Program-made: the position numbers and the translations under genes
IMG/VR virus record: IMGVR_UViG_3300045988_110999
Length of the DNA stretch: 64,000 nt
Strand: one strand, 5' to 3'
Source of the DNA: a virus
Shown here: in pieces, positions 35,841 through 54,221 of the stretch
How the letters are laid out: each line of letters opens with the position of its first letter
How positions within the stretch are numbered: position 1 is the stretch's first letter
Notes under the pieces: model-generated
What the model saw: the letters and a program-made list of their open reading frames with translations, nothing else
The model's database searches: none
Told to the model about the DNA's origin: nothing

Positions 35841-35915
35841 TGGCGGCGGTACTTAGAATCGAACTAAGACTAGCAGAGTCAAAGTCTGCTGTACTGACCG
35901 TTATACGATACCGCT
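35841..35915 (-). tRNA. tRNA-Gln (anticodon UUG)
   Basis: Cloverleaf by eye: anticodon stem GCAGA/TCTGC with loop CTTTGAC; T-arm CTTAG-TTCGATT-CTAAG; encoded 3' GCCA. Confidence 0.8.
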
Positions 35916-35918
35916 ATG

Positions 35919-35992
35919 TGGCATGGGTACAAGGACTCGAACCAAGATTGACGGTTTTGGAGACCGTAGTCTTTCCATTAGACGATACCCAC
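35919..35992 (-). tRNA. tRNA-Trp (anticodon CCA), with two U-U mismatches in the T-stem
   Basis: Acceptor GTGGGTA/TACCCAT; anticodon stem ACGGT/ACCGT with loop CTCCAAA; T-arm CTTGG-TTCGAGT-CCTTG is imperfect; encoded CCA. Confidence 0.6.
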
Positions 35993-35993
35993 A

Positions 35994-36081
35994 TGGCAGA
36001 GGAGGTGGGATTTGAACCCACGGTGCTGCTACGCACAGCTGTTTTCAGGACAGCCACCTTAATCCACTCGGACACTCCTCT
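35994..36081 (-). tRNA. Type II tRNA-Ser (anticodon UGA) with a long variable arm
   Basis: Acceptor AGAGGAG/CTCCTCT; anticodon stem GCTGT/ACAGC with loop CCTGAAA (C at position 33); variable arm GTGC-GTAGCA-GCAC; T-arm GTGGG-TTCAAAT-CCCAC; encoded CCA. Confidence 0.7.
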
Positions 36082-36085
36082 AATC

Positions 36086-36159
36086 TGGTTGCGGGGGATA
36101 GAGTCGAACTATCGTAACTGGGGAATGAGCCCAGCGTCCTACCTTTAGACGACCCCGCC
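36086..36159 (-). tRNA. tRNA-Met (anticodon CAU) with initiator-like features
   Basis: Anticodon stem CTGGG/CCCAG (three G-C pairs next to the loop) with loop CTCATTC; 1-72 is a G-A mismatch; T-arm GATAG-TTCGACT-CTATC; encoded CCA. Confidence 0.65.
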
Positions 36160-36837
36160 ATGCATCGGTTCTTTTCTCTCTTCGTGGAGCATCTCACTTC
36201 AAGAACCGGAAAGCGGTCGCCCTCGCAAGGGCGTGTACATCAAAAACCAGCGTCGATATCCACACCGTAGGACGATGCACGTGGTCCTTCCTAATATCCT
36301 ACAAAACTAAGCCAGGCACAGTCGAAGCTATCTAGAATCGTCTCCGCTGTGTACCCGGTATCCAAACATCGGATACTCGGAAACGCTTTTTTCAAAGCGT
36401 TTAGCAAAGCTAAAGCATTTAGAGTGCTCTCCATATGTTTCAATTCCTACTCACTAACCGGGAATTAGGCATATTCTTTTGGGAGCCTGCCTAGGCTACC
36501 GACCAACACCCAGAGCGTGTTGAAGTCTTTTCACGCGCCGTTACGAAACCCTCTATACATAGGGAACTTCACGGTATGGTTTTTCCGGTGATTTCTGACC
36601 GGGCCAGCATCAAAATAGTCTTTCCAGTATTAACAGGCCGACACTGTACCTGCCCCGGAGTTTAACGTCCTCCTGAGCGACGAGATATGGATGTTTAACG
36701 TCCTCCCGGACATCACCCCCTTTAGGTCATTTATGGCAACCTTTCTTTTTCAGAGGGCCTCACCTCCATCCTGAAACGTTTCAAAGAAACGTTTTGCGGT
36801 GCTGAAACACTTCGTGTTTCCCACTCGGAGTTATTTT
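36160..36837 (-). ncRNA. Candidate large structured non-coding RNA between terL and the tRNA array (GOLLD/ROOL-like context)
   Basis: ~680 nt with no ORF of 60 aa or more in any frame, in a gene-dense operon. More than 12 consecutive stem-loops with A-rich loops when read on the minus strand. Internal 14-nt direct repeat. Confidence 0.55.
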
Positions 36838-39294
36838 TTACATAGAACCGGCCAACGGGATTTCGTCTGTGACGACCTTCTCGTAAGAAGCGACCGGAGC
36901 AAAATAAATCTGGTCCTGATAGGCAAGTGCGTCAATCAGGTCATCATGCAAGGACTTCGGGAAAGCAAGGAATTCGCTTTCCAATTCCCCAAGAAAGGAC
37001 GCTCCCATCGGGAACCATACGGTGCCAGCTTTGAACCGGGGCTGTACGGCTTTGATACGCTCTTCTTTCTTTTCCTTGGCTTCCAAATCCTTGACCGTGA
37101 ACCAGATATTCCTCTTTGGCATTTCCTTTTCTATGAAGTGGGATAACGCCGCTTGGTAAGCGACCTTTTCCATACCCACATAGACAGGATGGTATCGAGT
37201 GACCGCCTCGAAGATAGCGTCTATCGTCTGGGTCGGATCGAACCTCCCATACTTTATATCCAATACGAACCAATGGTTTTCACTATTGACCCCCACAGTG
37301 CAGACTACGGTATAGTCCGCGGTTTCTTTCTGGGAAATAGCTAGGTCTACCGTAGTGAAGATGTTCATATCCTTCACATCAAGCTCTTCTTGCTTGTAGT
37401 ATTTGAAGTATTCTTTCTTGAACAGCTGGGTTTCCGGGGAAATAGCAATACACATCTTTTCCCGTTCCCATACATCCAGATTCCCGATTCGTCTAAAAGC
37501 TTCCCTTTCCGCTTTTATCTCTTCGGAGCTCCATCTTTCGGGCCATACACTGTTTCCTTCTGCGTCTAGGATAGGGATACGGACACCGGTAAACTTCAAA
37601 TCTTTCTGGTTCTCTATGACTCGTTCTATCAGGCATTTTTCACCCAGATTGTTCCCGATCATGAAGATTCTCGTCTTCTTCCCTAAGAACAATACGTCGG
37701 ACAGGAACCATTCCCAGTCCCCTTCCTGTACGGTATCTGACTTCGCATCTTCCAAGTCTTGTGGGTCGTCAATCAGGACAATAGACGGTCGGGCATCGTG
37801 AACGTTCAAACCACGGATAGCAGCCCCTTTGCCGTAAGCTTCAAAACGGACCCACATCTCTTCGTCATCTTTATCTTTTACGATGACCTCGAAACCGTTC
37901 TGGGACTGTTCTACGATACGTACCAGGTTCATGGATAGTAGCTCATTATTGAGCCATTCATCCTCAATTTCCTTTAACCGCTTACTGGCAGCTCTCTGCG
38001 TAGCCATGATAAAGACTACGTACTGCCTATCCTTGGAAGGATATGTCAGGCAGTGCATCGGGAAGGCTCTTAGTACGACGCCGCTATTATGGGTAACGAT
38101 GCAGCCAGTACCACATAAAAACAGCCCCGTAGGGCTGTCTACCTTGATACACATGGTGGGGACGGACTCACATTTAGAGACTTTCTTGACACTCCTCATC
38201 AGAGTGCGTTTATCCTGAGTATCACAAATCAAATCCCTCTTCCTTTTTAACTGAGGGAATTTAACTGTGGTCTTGAACGACACATCATAATGTGGCTTAC
38301 ATTCTTTGCCGTAGAGCTTAGATGGTTTCTTTATAATAGTAGCCTTAATACCTAAGCTTCTGACTAAATATAAAGTCCCCATAGCCAATCTTTCATTGGT
38401 GTTTGTGAAAGTAACCGTCCCAGCCTTGCTACCAGCCTTGGCAATCGTACCGTCACTATCAATGAGACCGGCCAATAATTGCCACCTGTTTTCCTCGCTG
38501 TCGTAGTAATACTCTTCCGGGATGTGCTTGTCGTATATCAACCCAAGGGATTTAAGCTCTTTCAAGAACCCTCCTTGGAACTTTATCGTCATTGCCGTTT
38601 TATCTTTGCGGCATGTCTTGGTTCCCCAGTCGATGTTCAGGAATGTCTCTTCAAAATCTTCCCCACCGCAAGTGATTTCGGCTGCTTTTGAATGACCATC
38701 TCCAAGCCATAACCCCAAATCATACGGAGAAATGATATGTTCTTTCCGAGGGTATTGTAAGGGCATAGCTAATGGTATACGGTATGCCTTTTCTTGATAT
38801 CCTTTTTTAGGTTTTCCCAAATCCTGCTTTGCGTACATCTCCAGTGTGGTTACGATATTCCATCTACGTTTGTGCTTGTCCCATACGCTCCACAGATGTT
38901 CTGCATCAGCAGTGATTTCCTCCCCGTCGTCAAATTCGACTTTGAAGCAAGGATGATCGTAAAAAATCTCGGAGGTGCTACCAACTAACACTGGGTTCCC
39001 ATTCTCATCAAATACGTAGTCCCCCGGCTTGATTTCCCCCATCAGCTTATATCCACTAGGGGTCGGGATAGGGGTGAAAATCGAGATTGCTTTTCCTGAC
39101 TCACGAAAGCCCTCTACAGCGTAGTGGTGCTTGCCTTTTAACAGTATCTTTCCCCATTCCTCTTGGAATGAAGGGGTCTTTACTTCATCTTCGACGGGGA
39201 GGAATACTCTTCTGAATAACATAAGGTCATCTTTGGCGTCACGGAACAGCTTCGCCATCATTACTTTCTTGTCCATATCTCTCTCCCCTTTCAT
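36838..39294 (-). CDS. terL: Terminase large subunit, interrupted by an intein in the Walker A P-loop
   Basis: 'VEGFRESGK|[intein]|SGVVLRAF' restores the G....GKS P-loop. Nuclease half includes 'DLAISQKETADYTV'. ATG 39276 (behind GGGGAG) is a likelier start than 39294. Confidence 0.9.
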   Translation of the reverse strand: MKGERDMDKKVMMAKLFRDAKDDLMLFRRVFLPVEDEVKTPSFQEEWGKILLKGKHHYAVEGFRESGKAISIFTPIPTPSGYKLMGEIKPGDYVFDENGNPVLVGSTSEIFYDHPCFKVEFDDGEEITADAEHLWSVWDKHKRRWNIVTTLEMYAKQDLGKPKKGYQEKAYRIPLAMPLQYPRKEHIISPYDLGLWLGDGHSKAAEITCGGEDFEETFLNIDWGTKTCRKDKTAMTIKFQGGFLKELKSLGLIYDKHIPEEYYYDSEENRWQLLAGLIDSDGTIAKAGSKAGTVTFTNTNERLAMGTLYLVRSLGIKATIIKKPSKLYGKECKPHYDVSFKTTVKFPQLKRKRDLICDTQDKRTLMRSVKKVSKCESVPTMCIKVDSPTGLFLCGTGCIVTHNSGVVLRAFPMHCLTYPSKDRQYVVFIMATQRAASKRLKEIEDEWLNNELLSMNLVRIVEQSQNGFEVIVKDKDDEEMWVRFEAYGKGAAIRGLNVHDARPSIVLIDDPQDLEDAKSDTVQEGDWEWFLSDVLFLGKKTRIFMIGNNLGEKCLIERVIENQKDLKFTGVRIPILDAEGNSVWPERWSSEEIKAEREAFRRIGNLDVWEREKMCIAISPETQLFKKEYFKYYKQEELDVKDMNIFTTVDLAISQKETADYTVVCTVGVNSENHWFVLDIKYGRFDPTQTIDAIFEAVTRYHPVYVGMEKVAYQAALSHFIEKEMPKRNIWFTVKDLEAKEKKEERIKAVQPRFKAGTVWFPMGASFLGELESEFLAFPKSLHDDLIDALAYQDQIYFAPVASYEKVVTDEIPLAGSM
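38086..39090 (-). mobile_element. Intein (335 aa) with Ala1 and the W/C/T triplet (class 3 type) plus a LAGLIDADG homing endonuclease domain
   Basis: Block A 'AISIFTPIPTPSG'; block B 'DAEHLW'; block F 'TMCIKVD...GLFLCGTG'; block G 'CIVTHN|S'; LAGLIDADG motifs 'LGLWLGDGHS' and 'LLAGLIDSDGTI'. 1005 nt, in frame. Confidence 0.85.
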
Positions 39295-39331
39295 CCTATT
39301 CGGTTTCGTTTCTTCATTTGCTTTTCTACCT

Positions 39332-39347
39332 TTGTCAAATTGTCAAA
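39332..39347. promoter_or_regulatory. Tandem TTGTCAAA x2 (two -35-like TTGACA hexamers on the minus strand) upstream of terL
   Basis: TTGTCAAATTGTCAAA at 39332-39347. No good -10 hexamer at 17 nt, so this may be an activator or alternative-sigma site. Confidence 0.3.
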
Positions 39348-39509
39348 ATACCTCTTGATTTTTCAAAATTTTTTTCGTTTTCCTATTTTACGGTTATAGT
39401 ACCCCCTTTTATTTTTTATTAATACTCACTTATATGAATAAATCTATCATACAAAGCCGTATTTGAACCATTAAAAGCGAATAAAACTAACAAAAAGGTC
39501 AAAAAAATG

Positions 39510-40300
39510 ACGTACAAGAGAGGGGTAACTTCCCTAATTTCCGCCCGGCCAGCCAAGTACCCGAAAAAGCGAAGCCCCACCCTCTAGATCTATGTACACT
39601 GCACGAGAACCATTAGAATCCGTGGGAAAGGCCAGACGATGCCGATAAATGGCTCAACCATGCGGTTTTAAGGCCATCCAACGGCTATGCTATGATACAG
39701 TTGTCCCAAGGGAAAGGGCCAAGGGGAAAGCTCATAAGTGAGTCGATTACTCGGGTTCTAACCTTAGACCCCTAGCACGGGTCGCGGGACATCAGAACTT
39801 TGACAACTGCATATAGTAGGGCCGTGCGGCACGGCCGCCCCCTATAGTCCTCATTAGAAGGACGATAAGGAAGTCGATTGAGGGGACGACGACAGTGCCG
39901 CACGGTAGCACGAGGCAAGGGCCTATTGGCAAGGCCCGATATGCCCGATAAAAACGGGCCAGCCTTAATTGCTCTGCCTAGGAACACCTCGAAAATGATA
40001 TTGAGAGGTGGGCATGTGGCGACGTCGATGTACAGGCGGACGTGAAGAGCGTCCACGTAATGCCGGTGTGAAGACGAGAAGCGGCCTAAAGCCCTACCCT
40101 AGCCGGTAGGTGCTTCACAAGGTGGTTAGAGCGGTTAAAATCCTCCGCACCCATATGGGGAAAGAGGCAATACGTGCGTACCTGCTATGGGACGAAAATC
40201 CCATGACGTGAATCCTTGAATCGGCTGAAACAATGCCGATTCCTATAACGTCGAAAAGGGGCTTTCAGGCCCCTATACAAGGGAAGGAAGTTAGTTTTTA
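39510..40300 (+). ncRNA. Candidate large structured RNA / long structured 5' leader of the rightward early operon
   Basis: ~0.8 kb, visibly G+C-richer than its flanks. The only ORF is a spurious R/P/C-rich 94-aa antisense one. Dense series of stem-loops with A-rich loops on the + strand. Confidence 0.5.
40268..40292. repeat. Left arm of the 25-bp inverted repeat flanking the first early gene
   Basis: GGCCCCTATACAAGGGAAGGAAGTT matches the reverse complement of 40611-40635 at 22 of 25 positions. Confidence 0.7.
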
Positions 40301-40333
40301 CCCTCTAAAGGGGATTGCATGGAGGTATGCTGC

Positions 40334-40603
40334 ATGTACAAATTGGTTAAAAAGTTCAAGAGTATTAGTGGAGAAATCCACATCAAAGAAAAGACTTATG
40401 AAGTTAATCGCAAGACCATTCTAAAAGTCGTCCGACAGGCGGCTAAAAAATACCGCCGTGATGAGGGCTGGGAAAATCTCCTGGCCGTTCCTAGGAAACA
40501 AGGGCGTGCTAAGGTATCGGGCCATTGTGAAATGAACCGCACCTATATTGCTCGTCAATGCGCCGGTATCGGGCGCATTGATATCTATGTAGTAGAGTTA
40601 TAA
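40334..40603 (+). CDS. Hypothetical basic early protein
   Basis: ATG 40334 lies 7 nt after GGAGGT; ORF track 40319..40603. Confidence 0.6.
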   Translation: MYKLVKKFKSISGEIHIKEKTYEVNRKTILKVVRQAAKKYRRDEGWENLLAVPRKQGRAKVSGHCEMNRTYIARQCAGIGRIDIYVVEL

Positions 40604-40610
40604 TTTATTC

Positions 40611-40635
40611 AACTTCCTTCCTTTATATAAGGGCC
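40611..40635. repeat. Right arm of the 25-bp inverted repeat flanking the first early gene
   Basis: AACTTCCTTCCTTTATATAAGGGCC. Confidence 0.7.
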
Positions 40636-40721
40636 TGAATATCCCTATAGGGGGATTGAAGACTAGAATGTTCAACATTTCCCCGCTCACGGTTTTGATT
40701 TTCAAAGAAAGAAGGTATATT

Positions 40722-51834: not shown

Positions 51835-53037
51835 CTATTTTACATAAAAGCGTCTTGCGGCTTCCGACTGACGTTCTTTGGAATACGAGCTGATACGTTT
51901 CAAGTAGCCGATAACTCGTGTACCATAATCAACGTCATGAGAACCACATTCCGTGCAATGGTCTTCTGTGTTTACGTTGATATAACCACAATCATTGCAA
52001 ATGGTAACTAAGCAATTATATGTCCAGTAATTTACTCCTAATCTCCCGGCCACACAAATTAAATCATATGCCTGATTCTTGCTGAACAGCTGGGCGATGT
52101 TAAGATGACATGCGCTACCACCATCGAGGTACTTAGTGGTTTCTTTCCCATGAAGGAACAACTTATCGAGAATGGTTAAAGAATCGTTTTCAACTGGGAA
52201 GAAATAAGAGTTATAGCAGTCACGGGGTACGGACAACCCATCATGCTTATCCCACTGAGCATTTTTAACGCCAAGGCCCTCCGCAGGCACATATTCGGTG
52301 TTAAATCGGAACCCATATACAGCCCTATCTGCCTTATTGAGGTCGTAAATAACTTTCAAGTACTTGGATACTTCTTTCTGATATGCTTCTTTATCAACTA
52401 CGGGGGAGAATCCTTTATATTCCATAGCTTCAAGCATACCGTTGATACCAATAGTACCAAACTGAGTATCGAAGTTAATAAACTGAGCTGTGTAAGCCGG
52501 TAACATACCAAGCTCGATGTAATGTTTGATAACGGCTCTGTGAGCGGCAAGGTATTTATGAATACGAGAAATCAAGTCACCGAACGGTAACTTACCTTCA
52601 TACTGCTGTACGTACCGGTTCATGTTGATGGTAATTACTCGGAAAGAGCCAGTTGATACACCGCCAGCCCCCAACGTGTAAGAGAAGGTATTGTCAGCCA
52701 GTTCGTTGCGGAGCCGGCAACACGATGCGAGAGAGTCAGCACTACGAGACTCATAGATGAAGAAGGACAGGCCCTTAGACATTTCTTCGGCAAGGAACCA
52801 TGCAAAGTCCTTATCTTTCGGTTTCTTATCCTCGTCCAGCAACACGGCGGCGGTAAGTACCGGATAGGTAAGGAGTTCTTTTTTGCGCTCCATGCGGAAC
52901 CATTCCATAAAGAATTCCTGTAACCGACTCAGACTCTTGTAATCTGGTTCGGTGCCATCAGGGAAACGGAAACCGCCAAAGATACCATCAAAGTAGTATT
53001 TATCGAATACAGAGATATTCCAAAACACGGATTGATT
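51835..53037 (-). CDS. nrdD: Anaerobic ribonucleoside-triphosphate reductase NrdD, exon 2
   Basis: Begins 'NQSVFWNISVFD'. C-terminal Zn ribbon 'CNDCGY...CTECGS' and glycyl-radical motif 'TRVIGYLKR'. Confidence 0.9.
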   Translation of the reverse strand, partial: NQSVFWNISVFDKYYFDGIFGGFRFPDGTEPDYKSLSRLQEFFMEWFRMERKKELLTYPVLTAAVLLDEDKKPKDKDFAWFLAEEMSKGLSFFIYESRSADSLASCCRLRNELADNTFSYTLGAGGVSTGSFRVITINMNRYVQQYEGKLPFGDLISRIHKYLAAHRAVIKHYIELGMLPAYTAQFINFDTQFGTIGINGMLEAMEYKGFSPVVDKEAYQKEVSKYLKVIYDLNKADRAVYGFRFNTEYVPAEGLGVKNAQWDKHDGLSVPRDCYNSYFFPVENDSLTILDKLFLHGKETTKYLDGGSACHLNIAQLFSKNQAYDLICVAGRLGVNYWTYNCLVTICNDCGYINVNTEDHCTECGSHDVDYGTRVIGYLKRISSYSKERQSEAARRFYVK

Positions 53038-53346
53038 CGAGCGCCCTATGCTTTCACATAGGCTCTGACTATCTCTTACTAACGAATGTTAGCACACCAT
53101 TTCGAGGAACGTATCAATAGTTCCCCTACTCCCCCACAATAGGGGATAGTCGATACACCTTCTAAACTGTAATGTTGGCATAACTTATACCTGCCTTTAT
53201 ATTATATATCGTATGGTAGGTAACTCCATAAAGTTTAGCTTGGCTCGGGATTGGCATACCTGAATGGCTTTAGCTTTCCCCGACAGCCGTTGAATAATCA
53301 ACGACCTCGCTGATAAACGATTAGATGTGTAGTGGCAATATTACTT
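53038..53346 (-). mobile_element. ORF-less group I intron (309 nt) splitting nrdD
   Basis: Exon 1 ends ...CGUGGU. The intron starts AAGUAAUAUUGCCAC, so P1 is GUGGU/GCCAC with a U-G pair at the splice site. The intron ends ...CUCG. The spliced junction reads 'NQPAAARG|NQSVFWNISVFD'. Confidence 0.75.
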
Positions 53347-53958
53347 ACCACGTGCCGCGGCTGGCTGGTTGAGGGCATAAACAACGCCCTGTAATTCCTG
53401 TGCGATACGGTCTTTAGCTACAGAGAGGTAATTATTCCCATACTGTTTACGAGCAAAATAGTCGAAGTACATAAGGAACTCTACGGTTGCCGTTGCCCCG
53501 GCCCAATTCGTAGCCAGTTGGTATACGAGATTCACAAAGGAACCGCAGAAGGACTGGAGATTCTTAGGAGCTTTACTCGTGCCCCCTAAACACTTTGTAC
53601 CATTCAGCAAAAACGGGTACATAGTAACAGAGGCGCAGTAAGGAAGAAAAGCAGCTAATGTTTCGTCATGGCAATACAGAAGATGACTTTCAATATCTTC
53701 CTCGTACTGGTCGGCTAAATCCTCTCCAAACATTTCCGTGATTTTGTCTTTGACGATTTTACGGCTGACCTGGATGTTCTCGAACTTGTACATCTCTTCC
53801 TTGAGTGTGCCCATGTTCTTTTCGGAAACATTGGAGTTAGGGTCTACTAAGGAAGCCGAGGCGTTATTGGTGGCCCCGATATAAAAATTAATGAAATCTA
53901 CCTTTTTCTGAATCTGTTCCGGTGTAAGATAGTTAAAGAACGATTTCTTATTTGTCAT
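53347..53958 (-). CDS. nrdD: Anaerobic ribonucleoside-triphosphate reductase NrdD, exon 1
   Basis: '...WAGATATVEFLMYFDYFARK...QGVVYALNQPAAARG'. ATG 53958 behind GAGGAGG. The unspliced frame stops 2 codons into the intron. Confidence 0.9.
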
Positions 53959-54221
53959 CAAAGAGCCTCCTCAACAAAATCTTTTAATACTTCCGGAGGG
54001 ATAACCCCTTCAATCCGGCTAATCTCTTTGTCGTCATCATAGACAACAACTGTAGGGTAAATGTGCAGATTGTATTTTTTCTCCATTAGGGAGGATTCTA
54101 CCCTTTTATTCTCAAAATCAATCTCATTTTTATACTTTTCAGCCAGCTCTTTAAATGTGCCACTGATTCGATTGCAATGGAAGCAGTTGTCGATATAGAA
54201 CTTACAGATTTTCTTACTCAT
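53958..54221 (-). CDS. Thioredoxin/glutaredoxin-fold protein (CxxC)
   Basis: 'KFYIDNCFHCNRISGTFKELAEKY...YPTVVVYDD'; ATG 54221 behind AAGGGGTGA. Confidence 0.75.
   Translation of the reverse strand: MSKKICKFYIDNCFHCNRISGTFKELAEKYKNEIDFENKRVESSLMEKKYNLHIYPTVVVYDDDKEISRIEGVIPPEVLKDFVEEAL

Follow-up and report, generated by a model that had tools for sequence, protein, structure and literature searches.

A composite non-coding region between terL and the early operon of a phage genome: a candidate origin module, a predicted promoter and a large structured RNA

Introduction

The IMG/VR virus record IMGVR_UViG_3300045988_110999 is represented here by a stretch of 64,000 nucleotides (nt), referred to as the window, in which terL and the structural genes run leftward and the early genes run rightward from position 40334. 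The non-coding region between the two blocks (39510-40318) is a composite of an origin-type DNA module, a predicted promoter, and a structured RNA that precedes the first early gene. An original prediction, made from the sequence alone, had described a single G+C-rich and highly self-complementary region without open reading frames (ORFs), and had offered a functional RNA, a DNA-level element for replication or packaging, or the remnant of a mobile RNA as explanations; an Rfam scan, a covariation test, and a comparison of G+C content were among the checks it proposed. The region stands as described, but its composite make-up and its predicted internal promoter had gone unnoticed. The principal features are as follows.

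39300-39490, no strand assigned: AT-rich divergent zone, from terL (start 39294, minus strand) to the boxes; G+C 0.275 (39300-39499)
39526-39538, plus strand: boxA, TAACTTCCCTAAT; single copy in the window
39557-39582, plus strand: boxB, GTACCC...CGAAGCCCCACCC, with CGAAGCCCCACCC at 39570-39582; clade-specific, single copy in the window
39647-39668, plus strand: boxC, the candidate origin core AA-ATGGCTCAACCATGCGGTT-T, with the 19-nt core ATGGCTYAACCATGCGGTT at 39649-39667; wide sequence matches
39688-39696, plus strand: predicted extended -10 promoter, TGcTATGAT (window TGCTATGAT); conserved signature
39700-40292, plus strand: structured non-coding RNA, about 590 nt here as against about 530 nt in relatives, which precedes the early operon as its leader; covariation
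40264-40292, plus strand: proximal arm (29 nt) of an inverted repeat, overlapping the 3' half of the last hairpin of the RNA (40257-63/40268-74)
40334-40603, plus strand: first early gene, 89 amino acids (aa), no known family, with a GGAGG ribosome-binding site; bracketed by the inverted repeat
40611-40639, plus strand: distal arm of the repeat, directly after the first early gene's stop codon

Composition and coding potential

Composition and the list of ORFs both agree with a G+C-rich, ORF-free stretch of about 0.8 kilobases (kb) at 39510-40318. The G+C content is 0.495-0.565 across 39500-40199, whereas 39300-39499 has 0.275 and most early genes on the right side have 0.36-0.44; in the G+C comparison that had been proposed, the region (0.50-0.565) thus exceeds its neighbours on both sides. 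The AT skew and the GC skew are both positive in 39510-40318 (i.e., the plus strand is purine-rich). ORFs of at least 30 aa in this interval are all short or antisense, including a 94-aa antisense frame (39772..40056), and none is credible. Indels between relatives are not multiples of three, and the window carries a private insertion of 58 nt; both argue against coding.

When the region is folded alone, the minimum free energy z-scores are -3.5 for the plus strand and -4.9 for the minus strand (20 shuffles per strand); both strands are more stable than their shuffled copies, but taken alone these values are no more than suggestive, and they do not pick a strand. A search of the whole 64-kb window with Rfam 15 gives four transfer RNAs (tRNAs) as the only gathering-level matches. 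At E <= 10, the interval 39300-40400 yields only four chance-level matches (10-19 bits), and none to GOLLD, ROOL, OLE, HEARO, raiA, group I or II introns, or self-cleaving ribozymes; RNase P, tmRNA, and 6S likewise give no gathering-level match. Rfam is also negative for the relatives of the region and for the other loci that bear the core.

Relatives of the region

No GenBank phage is related to the region at the DNA level, and the TerL identity found in that collection is only about 25%. Retrieval from IMG/VR by TerL yields 17 related contigs (54-80% TerL identity), all of which have an ORF-poor gap of 0.75-1.5 kb upstream of terL; the DNA common to this gap in the window and in these relatives amounts to only about 90 nt, holding the invariant boxA and boxB. 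No related locus was retrieved from IMG/VR with the first early protein as query. A two-box pattern scan of metagenomes added the loci L043 (about 80% identical over the whole region), L051, and L050, and homologues of the 89-aa early protein led to L108-L115. The position of the region is syntenic in all relatives, and similarity falls off gradually.

The alignment termed A1 consists of eight sequences over 39495-40318, some of them near-identical; alignments are small in general (8-9 sequences for the main RNA, three for a sister sub-clade). The A1 consensus structure was obtained with RNAalifold, and covariation was counted on the same alignment that gave the structure. An nhmmer profile of A1, used to search for distant homologues, matches L051 over profile positions 2-630 at about 73% identity.

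A structured RNA on the plus strand

The RNAalifold consensus on A1 comprises 140 pairs, 26 of which show compensatory double changes, and standard pairs fill 98.1% of the cells when this structure is held fixed. Column shuffles give 10.2 +/- 2.2 double-changed pairs, with none of 500 reaching 26, and sliding the 3' partners by 1-3 columns leaves just 1-7. The covariation is concentrated between about 39730 and 40274. G.U cells number 98 and A.C cells 12, which identifies the RNA as the plus strand. The addition of L051 preserves the architecture, brings L051-specific compensations in several helices, and raises the number of covarying pairs to 34. Both hallmarks of a structured RNA in general, compensatory changes and a strand-specific excess of G.U pairs, are present, and the functional-RNA explanation is the one that covariation supports for approximately 39700-40292; that the plus strand specifies a real structured RNA is very likely. 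The elements of the structure, all on the plus strand, are as follows.

39904-40182: best-supported core domain, kept by L051 with its own compensations
39904-39912/40173-40182: domain-closing helix, with covariation in A1
39965-39978/40124-40138: long-range helix of 15 base pairs (bp), with five pairs changed on both sides
39943-59, 39985-40010, 40011-86, 40038-54, and 40089-115: core-domain hairpins of the A1 structure
40187-92/40199-204; 40205-09/40248-52 enclosing 40218-25/40235-42; 40257-63/40268-74: 3' hairpins of the A1 structure
about 39825-39882: the window-specific 58-nt insertion, which holds the CCGTGCGGCACGG hairpin and is absent from all eight aligned relatives

The helix that closes the 5' end differs by alignment: 39704-07 pairs with 40281-84 in A1, whereas with L051 included 39702-07 pairs with 39787-92 and 39799-803 with 40277-81. 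Clusters of G lie at the 5' end of the RNA (39705-39730). All of the hairpins that had been listed from the single sequence are present near the places given for them. Compensatory changes in relatives are found in GCCCG/CGGGC, CACCTC/GAGGTG, GGACG/CGTCC, ATGGGA/TCCCAT, and AATCGGC/GCCGATT; CTACC/GGTAG is kept mostly through one-sided A-U/G-U changes, with outer pairs (AAGC/GCTT) that change on both sides, and AGGGGC/GCCCCT is conserved with one G.U change. The standing of GGGCC/GGCCC is mixed, as its closing pair is G-C or A-U depending on the member when the alignment is read by eye and RNAalifold predicted another pairing there. The hairpin GCCGTG-CGG-CACGGC is not conserved; it lies in the private insertion, and the relatives lack it.

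Two further candidates in this part of the region were discarded. The -10 T of a promoter-like match at 40114-40141 is a C in relatives, with a compensating change in its helix partner (columns 590/765). A helix suggested by the fold of the single sequence, which would close the whole 0.8 kb by pairing boxA with 40280-40286, does not vary in the close clade, and L072-type members lack it.

A sister sub-clade (L072, L089, and L050) has boxes A to C and the first 40 nt or so of the transcript in common with the window; beyond this point, a different sequence of about 520 nt occupies the same place. In these three sequences, 17 pairs are double-changed, compared with 7.5 +/- 2.0 after shuffling (0 of 500 reaching the observed number) and 0-2 with slid partners. 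A sequence that differs and yet folds with covariation indicates that length and foldedness are conserved while the sequence itself turns over. The same pattern, length and structure kept while sequence varies, is reported for the three origin (ori) types of c2-like phages (PMC7150918). The RNA has no match among curated families, no description of it was found, and the family itself appears to be new.

Two explanations of the structure are best considered here. The RNA could be a stand-alone, trans-acting “ornate” RNA in the sense of GOLLD and ROOL, processed from the early transcript and directed at a host or phage target or assembled into a higher-order particle. Its size, number of helices, A-rich loops, and long-range closing helices resemble those of large, multi-helix, phage-encoded RNAs, as do its phage origin and the fast turnover of its sequence with structure retained (PMC12286853); in addition, a tRNA cluster lies 3.5 kb away. 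However, neither GOLLD nor ROOL, nor OLE, HEARO, or raiA, gives a covariance-model match even at E <= 10, no terminator or defined 3' end is visible, and the RNA has the position of a leader at an early promoter rather than that of an independent gene beside tRNAs. A trans-acting RNA of this kind is considered improbable. The large structure might also be a decayed group I or II intron, the remnant of another mobile ribozyme, or a set of unrecognised small coding genes, in a genome that has an intein-like insertion in terL and a split nrdD. This is very improbable: a search at E <= 10 yields neither an intron nor a ribozyme family, exons do not flank the region, every relative carries it at one and the same position and divergence is gradual, the lengths of indels do not fit the triplet code, and an ATG within the core runs into a TAA stop in the T variant (ATG-GCT-TAA), which likewise disposes of the core as coding sequence. 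Nothing supports the proposed mobile-RNA remnant, in view of the Rfam result, the synteny, and the gradual decay of similarity.

The 19-nt core

The exact 19-nt core occurs in 54 IMG/VR contigs in about 34 distinct contexts, almost all of them intergenic. These contexts share nothing else; their flanks hold lineage-specific short repeats, both direct and inverted, and about one-third of the loci are flanked by inverted repeats of this kind. The commonest PHROG families among 50 larger proteins encoded next to the core are DNA primase/helicase, integrase, and replication. All of the core matches in GenBank are Firmicutes phages or satellites. In satellite phages of Streptococcus, the core lies 195 nt after a 537-aa gene; in Anaerostipes phages, it adjoins a gene with DUF927/Cch-HTH; and in L063, it adjoins a Rep_3 gene.

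Two kinds of match place the core inside origin regions. In the Ceduovirus phage bIBBp6/4, the core is found in a 658-bp gap between early and late genes, and published primer sequences (PMC7150918) place it inside a cloned ori fragment, which supports plasmid replication in L. lactis without phage proteins (PMC7150918). In two plasmids, the core has 11-bp repeats on one side and four 22-bp iterons on the other, and a Rep_3 initiator gene follows 193 nt downstream of it; the sequence of the iterons differs between the two. The core at 39649-39667 is identical to that of NZ_CP012293 (AAAATGGCTCAACCATGCGGTTT) and one base off that of pPLA4. The origin character of the phage fragment thus comes from cloning, and that of the iteron origins from annotation and architecture. 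The plasmids agree with the published layout of the pUCL287-type theta origin, which has 11-bp repeats, a 37-bp spacer, and 22-bp iterons (PMC7117683); to judge from the sequences, the core is the unnamed spacer of this layout. The core sequence was not found in a literature search, and no Rfam family covers it.

Several other identities were tried for the core and set aside. In the sigma-54 promoter (TGGC-N7-TGC) the consensus GG-GC spacing is 12, and that of the core is 11. No tRNA features support an attP site or tRNA fragment, and outside the clade the distance to -10-like hexamers is not conserved, as it would be for a general promoter element. The plasmids that carry the core proved to be iteron/Rep_3 theta replicons, not rolling-circle plasmids with a single-strand origin (sso). 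For the tip of an RNA hairpin, the flanks of the core pair beyond shuffled expectation in only 11 of 36 loci and without strand bias, which makes a DNA-level site no less likely.

Several loci from unrelated elements (L082, L087, L098, L094, L099, and L117, the last being Javan138) have the core at a near-constant 195-206 nt downstream of the preceding gene, with lineage-specific iteron-like repeats directly before it. The preceding gene is primase-helicase-like in L082, L087, and L098, an integrase gene in L099, and of no family in L094 and L117. In L119 (Lactococcus phage 1706, NC_010576), orf75 beside the core is annotated as an RNA-dependent RNA polymerase; its Pfam match to this polymerase is sub-threshold (22.4 bits against a cutoff of 23.8) and is accompanied by helix-turn-helix (HTH) domains.

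Boxes A and B and the AT-rich zone

BoxA is invariant or one base off throughout the clade, including those members with as little as 54-64% TerL identity. Inspection of the alignments, distant members included, revealed no covarying helix around boxA. BoxB occurs twice, in an iteron-like manner, in L002, L051, L007, and L011, where the second copy is about 200 nt upstream. Because distant members have no covarying helix at boxes A and B and boxB is duplicated, both are treated as DNA-level elements, and they may be binding sites for a clade-specific protein. The AT-rich zone that precedes them has minor features of its own.

39332-39369, no strand assigned: three 10-nt repeats, TTGTCAAAAT-like, from a repeat search
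39340-39369 (plus strand) and 39366-39339 (minus strand): promoter-like sites in the AT-rich zone
about 39396-39407, no strand assigned: reduced upstream copy of a AGTACCCC element, from alignment with distant members, which have a full upstream AGTACCCC...GAAGCCCYACCCCT copy

L111 has an insertion of about 75 nt just upstream of boxA (approximately 2165-2240 of that locus), a partial duplicate of the sequence before boxA (...gaaatgacatacaagagaggt...).

The DNA-level element of the original prediction is supported in its replication form for the first 180 nt or so of the region, given that the core is also found inside plasmid and phage origins; its packaging form has no support. A packaging (pac or cos) site would fit the position next to terL, the lack of an evident small-terminase gene between terL and the region, and the single copy of each box in the window. 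However, the core has genes for Rep, primase, and integrase as neighbours and also lies within plasmid origins, none of these being a packaging module, the G.U-rich covariation marks an RNA rather than a DNA site, and related contigs are assembled through the region with no ends there. It is thus hardly credible that the region serves packaging.

Predicted promoter and first early gene

The signature TGnTAnnnT is found between boxC and the covarying domain in 11 of 11 clade members, at 22-24 nt after the core in each, including after the degenerate second boxC of L002. The -10 hexamer is TATGAT, TATTAT, or TATACT, depending on the member, and -10 hexamers tolerate these substitutions. L003, which is without boxC, carries TGGTAAGAT at the aligned position. 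Conservation, covarying structure on the plus strand, and a fixed spacing of core and signature are direct observations on these relatives, and we infer from the signature that an extended -10 promoter is in use. Such a promoter would start the RNA at about 39700-39704, which coincides with the beginning of the first predicted helices.

L002 (IMGVR_UViG_3300013382_000002) has two tandem cores about 90-190 nt downstream of boxA. The first is exact, and a -10-like hexamer, TATAGT, comes 19 nt after it; the other copy is degenerate (ATGGCTTAGTTATGCTGTT, then TGATATACT), with the hexamer TATACT 23 nt after it. The CC of the core is replaced by TT opposite GG in the degenerate copy, and an AUGG/CCAU hairpin would persist there through G.U pairs.

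Neither a terminator-like site nor a further promoter is found between the RNA and the first early gene at 40334, so the RNA is at least the leader of the early operon. The 89-aa product of this gene has eight homologues at 75-100% identity and no Pfam domain. Across ten sequences, the inverted repeat that brackets the gene has 247 Watson-Crick cells, covaries at four positions, and keeps two C.A mismatches in all or most members; its 14 G.U and 21 A.C cells show no bias towards either strand. Because part of the last hairpin of the RNA belongs to the proximal arm, the local and distal pairings are mutually exclusive. An RNA switch, a processing duplex, and a DNA-level repeat are possible identities for the inverted repeat.

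These features bear most directly on the main rival explanation, a purely regulatory 5' leader in which the fold of about 590 nt controls the early operon (e.g., through translation, stability, processing, or antitermination) and the core is coincidental or otherwise used. The RNA is followed directly by the first early gene and its strong GGAGG site, neither a recognisable terminator nor another promoter lying in between, and the mutually exclusive pairings at the 3' end (local hairpin or 29-nt duplex) resemble a switch or a processing site of the RNase III type. On the other side, L051 has kept the RNA without showing a homologue of the 89-aa protein among matches of at least 75% identity, and the fixed 22-24-nt spacing to the core in all members is left unexplained. 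A length of 590 nt is also far above the size of known bacterial cis-regulators. A leader with regulation as its only function is rather unlikely, although regulation as such is compatible with an origin function and does not exclude it.

Comparison with known origins

A close counterpart is the origin of Ceduovirus (c2-like) phages, a non-coding stretch of several hundred nt, free of ORFs and ribosome-binding sites, between divergent late and early blocks; the leftward terL and structural genes and the rightward early genes of the window have this arrangement. In the c2 ori, a non-coding transcript (PE1-T) from an early promoter is reported to have a length and structure that matter (PMC7150918), and a promoter at the corresponding place in the window is predicted from the sequence. 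Ceduovirus ori types are unrelated in sequence between sub-groups, with length and structure being important, which recalls the two RNA types of the window clade, and the 923-type ori fragment has the same core at 18 of 19 nt. There is no sequence similarity outside the core. The RNA of the window is longer than the Ceduovirus transcript, G+C-rich, and has proven covariation.

Theta origins of the pUCL287 type (Rep_3, class A) in lactic acid bacteria resemble the window in a core of 19-22 nt, an AT-rich neighbourhood, and short repeats nearby; in the window, by contrast, a promoter and a long structured RNA come after the core. ColE1 RNA II, a transcript of about 550 nt whose correct folding is needed for it to act at the origin, and the primary origin of T7 are alike in having a promoter next to the origin, and the phage of the window encodes a primase-helicase like T7 gp4. 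There is no sequence or structural homology to either, and ColE1 RNA II runs towards its origin, whereas the RNA of the window runs away from the core.

A proposed replication and early-control hub

These findings are best explained by a region that would serve the phage as a hub for replication and early control. The interval 39490-39670 would be an origin-of-replication-type DNA module made up of the clade-specific boxes A and B and the 19-nt core, and the core would be an element that the origins of Firmicutes theta plasmids and of c2-like phages have in common with many replication modules of phages and satellites. The extended -10 early promoter, 23 nt downstream of the core, would fire rightward and yield a transcript that begins with the multi-helix RNA of about 590 nt and continues into the early genes without a recognisable terminator; at its 3' end, the RNA would pair either locally or with the segment just past the first early gene. 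The folded leader may then act in cis, through transcriptional activation, the formation of an RNA-DNA hybrid or primer, or both, and may also set the expression of the early operon. Action of this kind has been proposed for PE1-T of c2 (PMC7150918).

The AT-rich zone next to the module, the cumulative GC-skew minimum at 39500-39700, a divergent late/early junction as in Ceduovirus, the 22-24-nt spacing of core and -10 signature, and the gp4-like primase-helicase all favour an origin at this place. ColE1 RNA II, which forms a persistent RNA-DNA hybrid at its origin, is processed by RNase H, and primes a Pol I start, is another precedent for the action of the leader. Among the ten larger ORFs of the window, a PHROGs scan finds a primase-helicase (gp4-like), a helicase, an exonuclease, RusA, and NrdD, with no Rep_3 and no classical initiator.

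A number of observations weigh against this explanation. The enrichment of replication genes among the neighbours of the core is modest, the orientation of the core relative to neighbouring genes differs among loci, and the core of bIBBp6/4 does not stand in the same relation and orientation to the early genes as that of the window; nor was a description of the core's role within any origin found in the literature. Within the close clade, boxes A to C do not vary, and distant members show no helix at them. The promoter predicted at 39688-39696 has no good -35. Divergent transcription accounts equally well for the GC-skew minimum, and a conserved fold is equally expected of a purely regulatory leader or a trans-acting RNA. 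Finally, 39300-40450 contains no 22-bp iterons or 11-bp repeats, only short families of two- or three-copy repeats, and no Rep_3 gene (PF01051) is adjacent, the neighbours being terL and the gene for the 89-aa protein without a Pfam domain; the window is therefore not a pUCL287-type origin as such.

When the parts of the hub are considered separately, the core module is probably an origin element here, whereas it is doubtful that the fold of the RNA serves the initiation of replication. The composite anatomy taken together with a role in cis at the early/replication control region is an evenly balanced proposition. We infer from the combined evidence that the module may be the origin of this phage and that the folded leader may act there in cis. 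A bolder version would place the RNA in a novel class of origin RNAs that phages of Gram-positive anaerobes possess: a structured early transcript starting 23 nt from a near-universal core, whose fold opens or primes the origin as a counterpart of ColE1 RNA II. The core would then be an origin element, so far unrecognised, that is widespread in the plasmids, phages, and satellites of Firmicutes and brings in a conserved host factor. This version is speculative and considered unlikely.

Neighbouring features

The terL gene (36838-39294, minus strand) encodes 818 aa, as compared with 478-490 aa in L005 and L072. The additional 335 residues or so (approximately 38060-39075) start right after the P-loop motif GFRESGK, are intein-like, and are also present in L001-L004. 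Downstream of terL, four tRNA genes (Gln-TTG, Trp-CCA, Ser-TGA, and Met-CAT) lie at 35841-36159 on the minus strand; relatives have one to seven tRNAs at the same place. The other ORF-free stretch of the window next to terL (36160-36837) has no Rfam match and is partly conserved: L111 matches 170 nt of it at 98% identity and a further 87 nt at 84%, and L072 matches it in two pieces at 84-86%. A gene for an NrdD-like anaerobic ribonucleotide reductase is split into 51835-53028 and 53341-53961 (minus strand) by a gap of 312 nt. A frameshift, an intein, or an intron could account for the split; the Rfam scan gives no intron at this place. The presence of NrdD suggests an anaerobic host.

Significance

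As a kind of element, the RNA is familiar, both as a large structured phage RNA and as an origin-region transcript; the coupling of such an RNA to the core and the breadth of the core's distribution appear to be new. To our knowledge, few large RNAs of bacteria or phages combine proven covariation with the lack of an assigned family, and those described (GOLLD, ROOL, OLE) have each opened new biology. The RNA of the window starts beside a 19-nt sequence that is found in a cloned phage origin, in Rep_3 iteron origins, and in dozens of phage and satellite replication modules. Even if it is a leader only, it would still be among the largest structured leaders known. If it acts at the origin, it would show how phages without a classical initiator start replication, and the core would provide a sequence handle for the prediction of origins in uncultivated Firmicutes phages, satellites, and plasmids.

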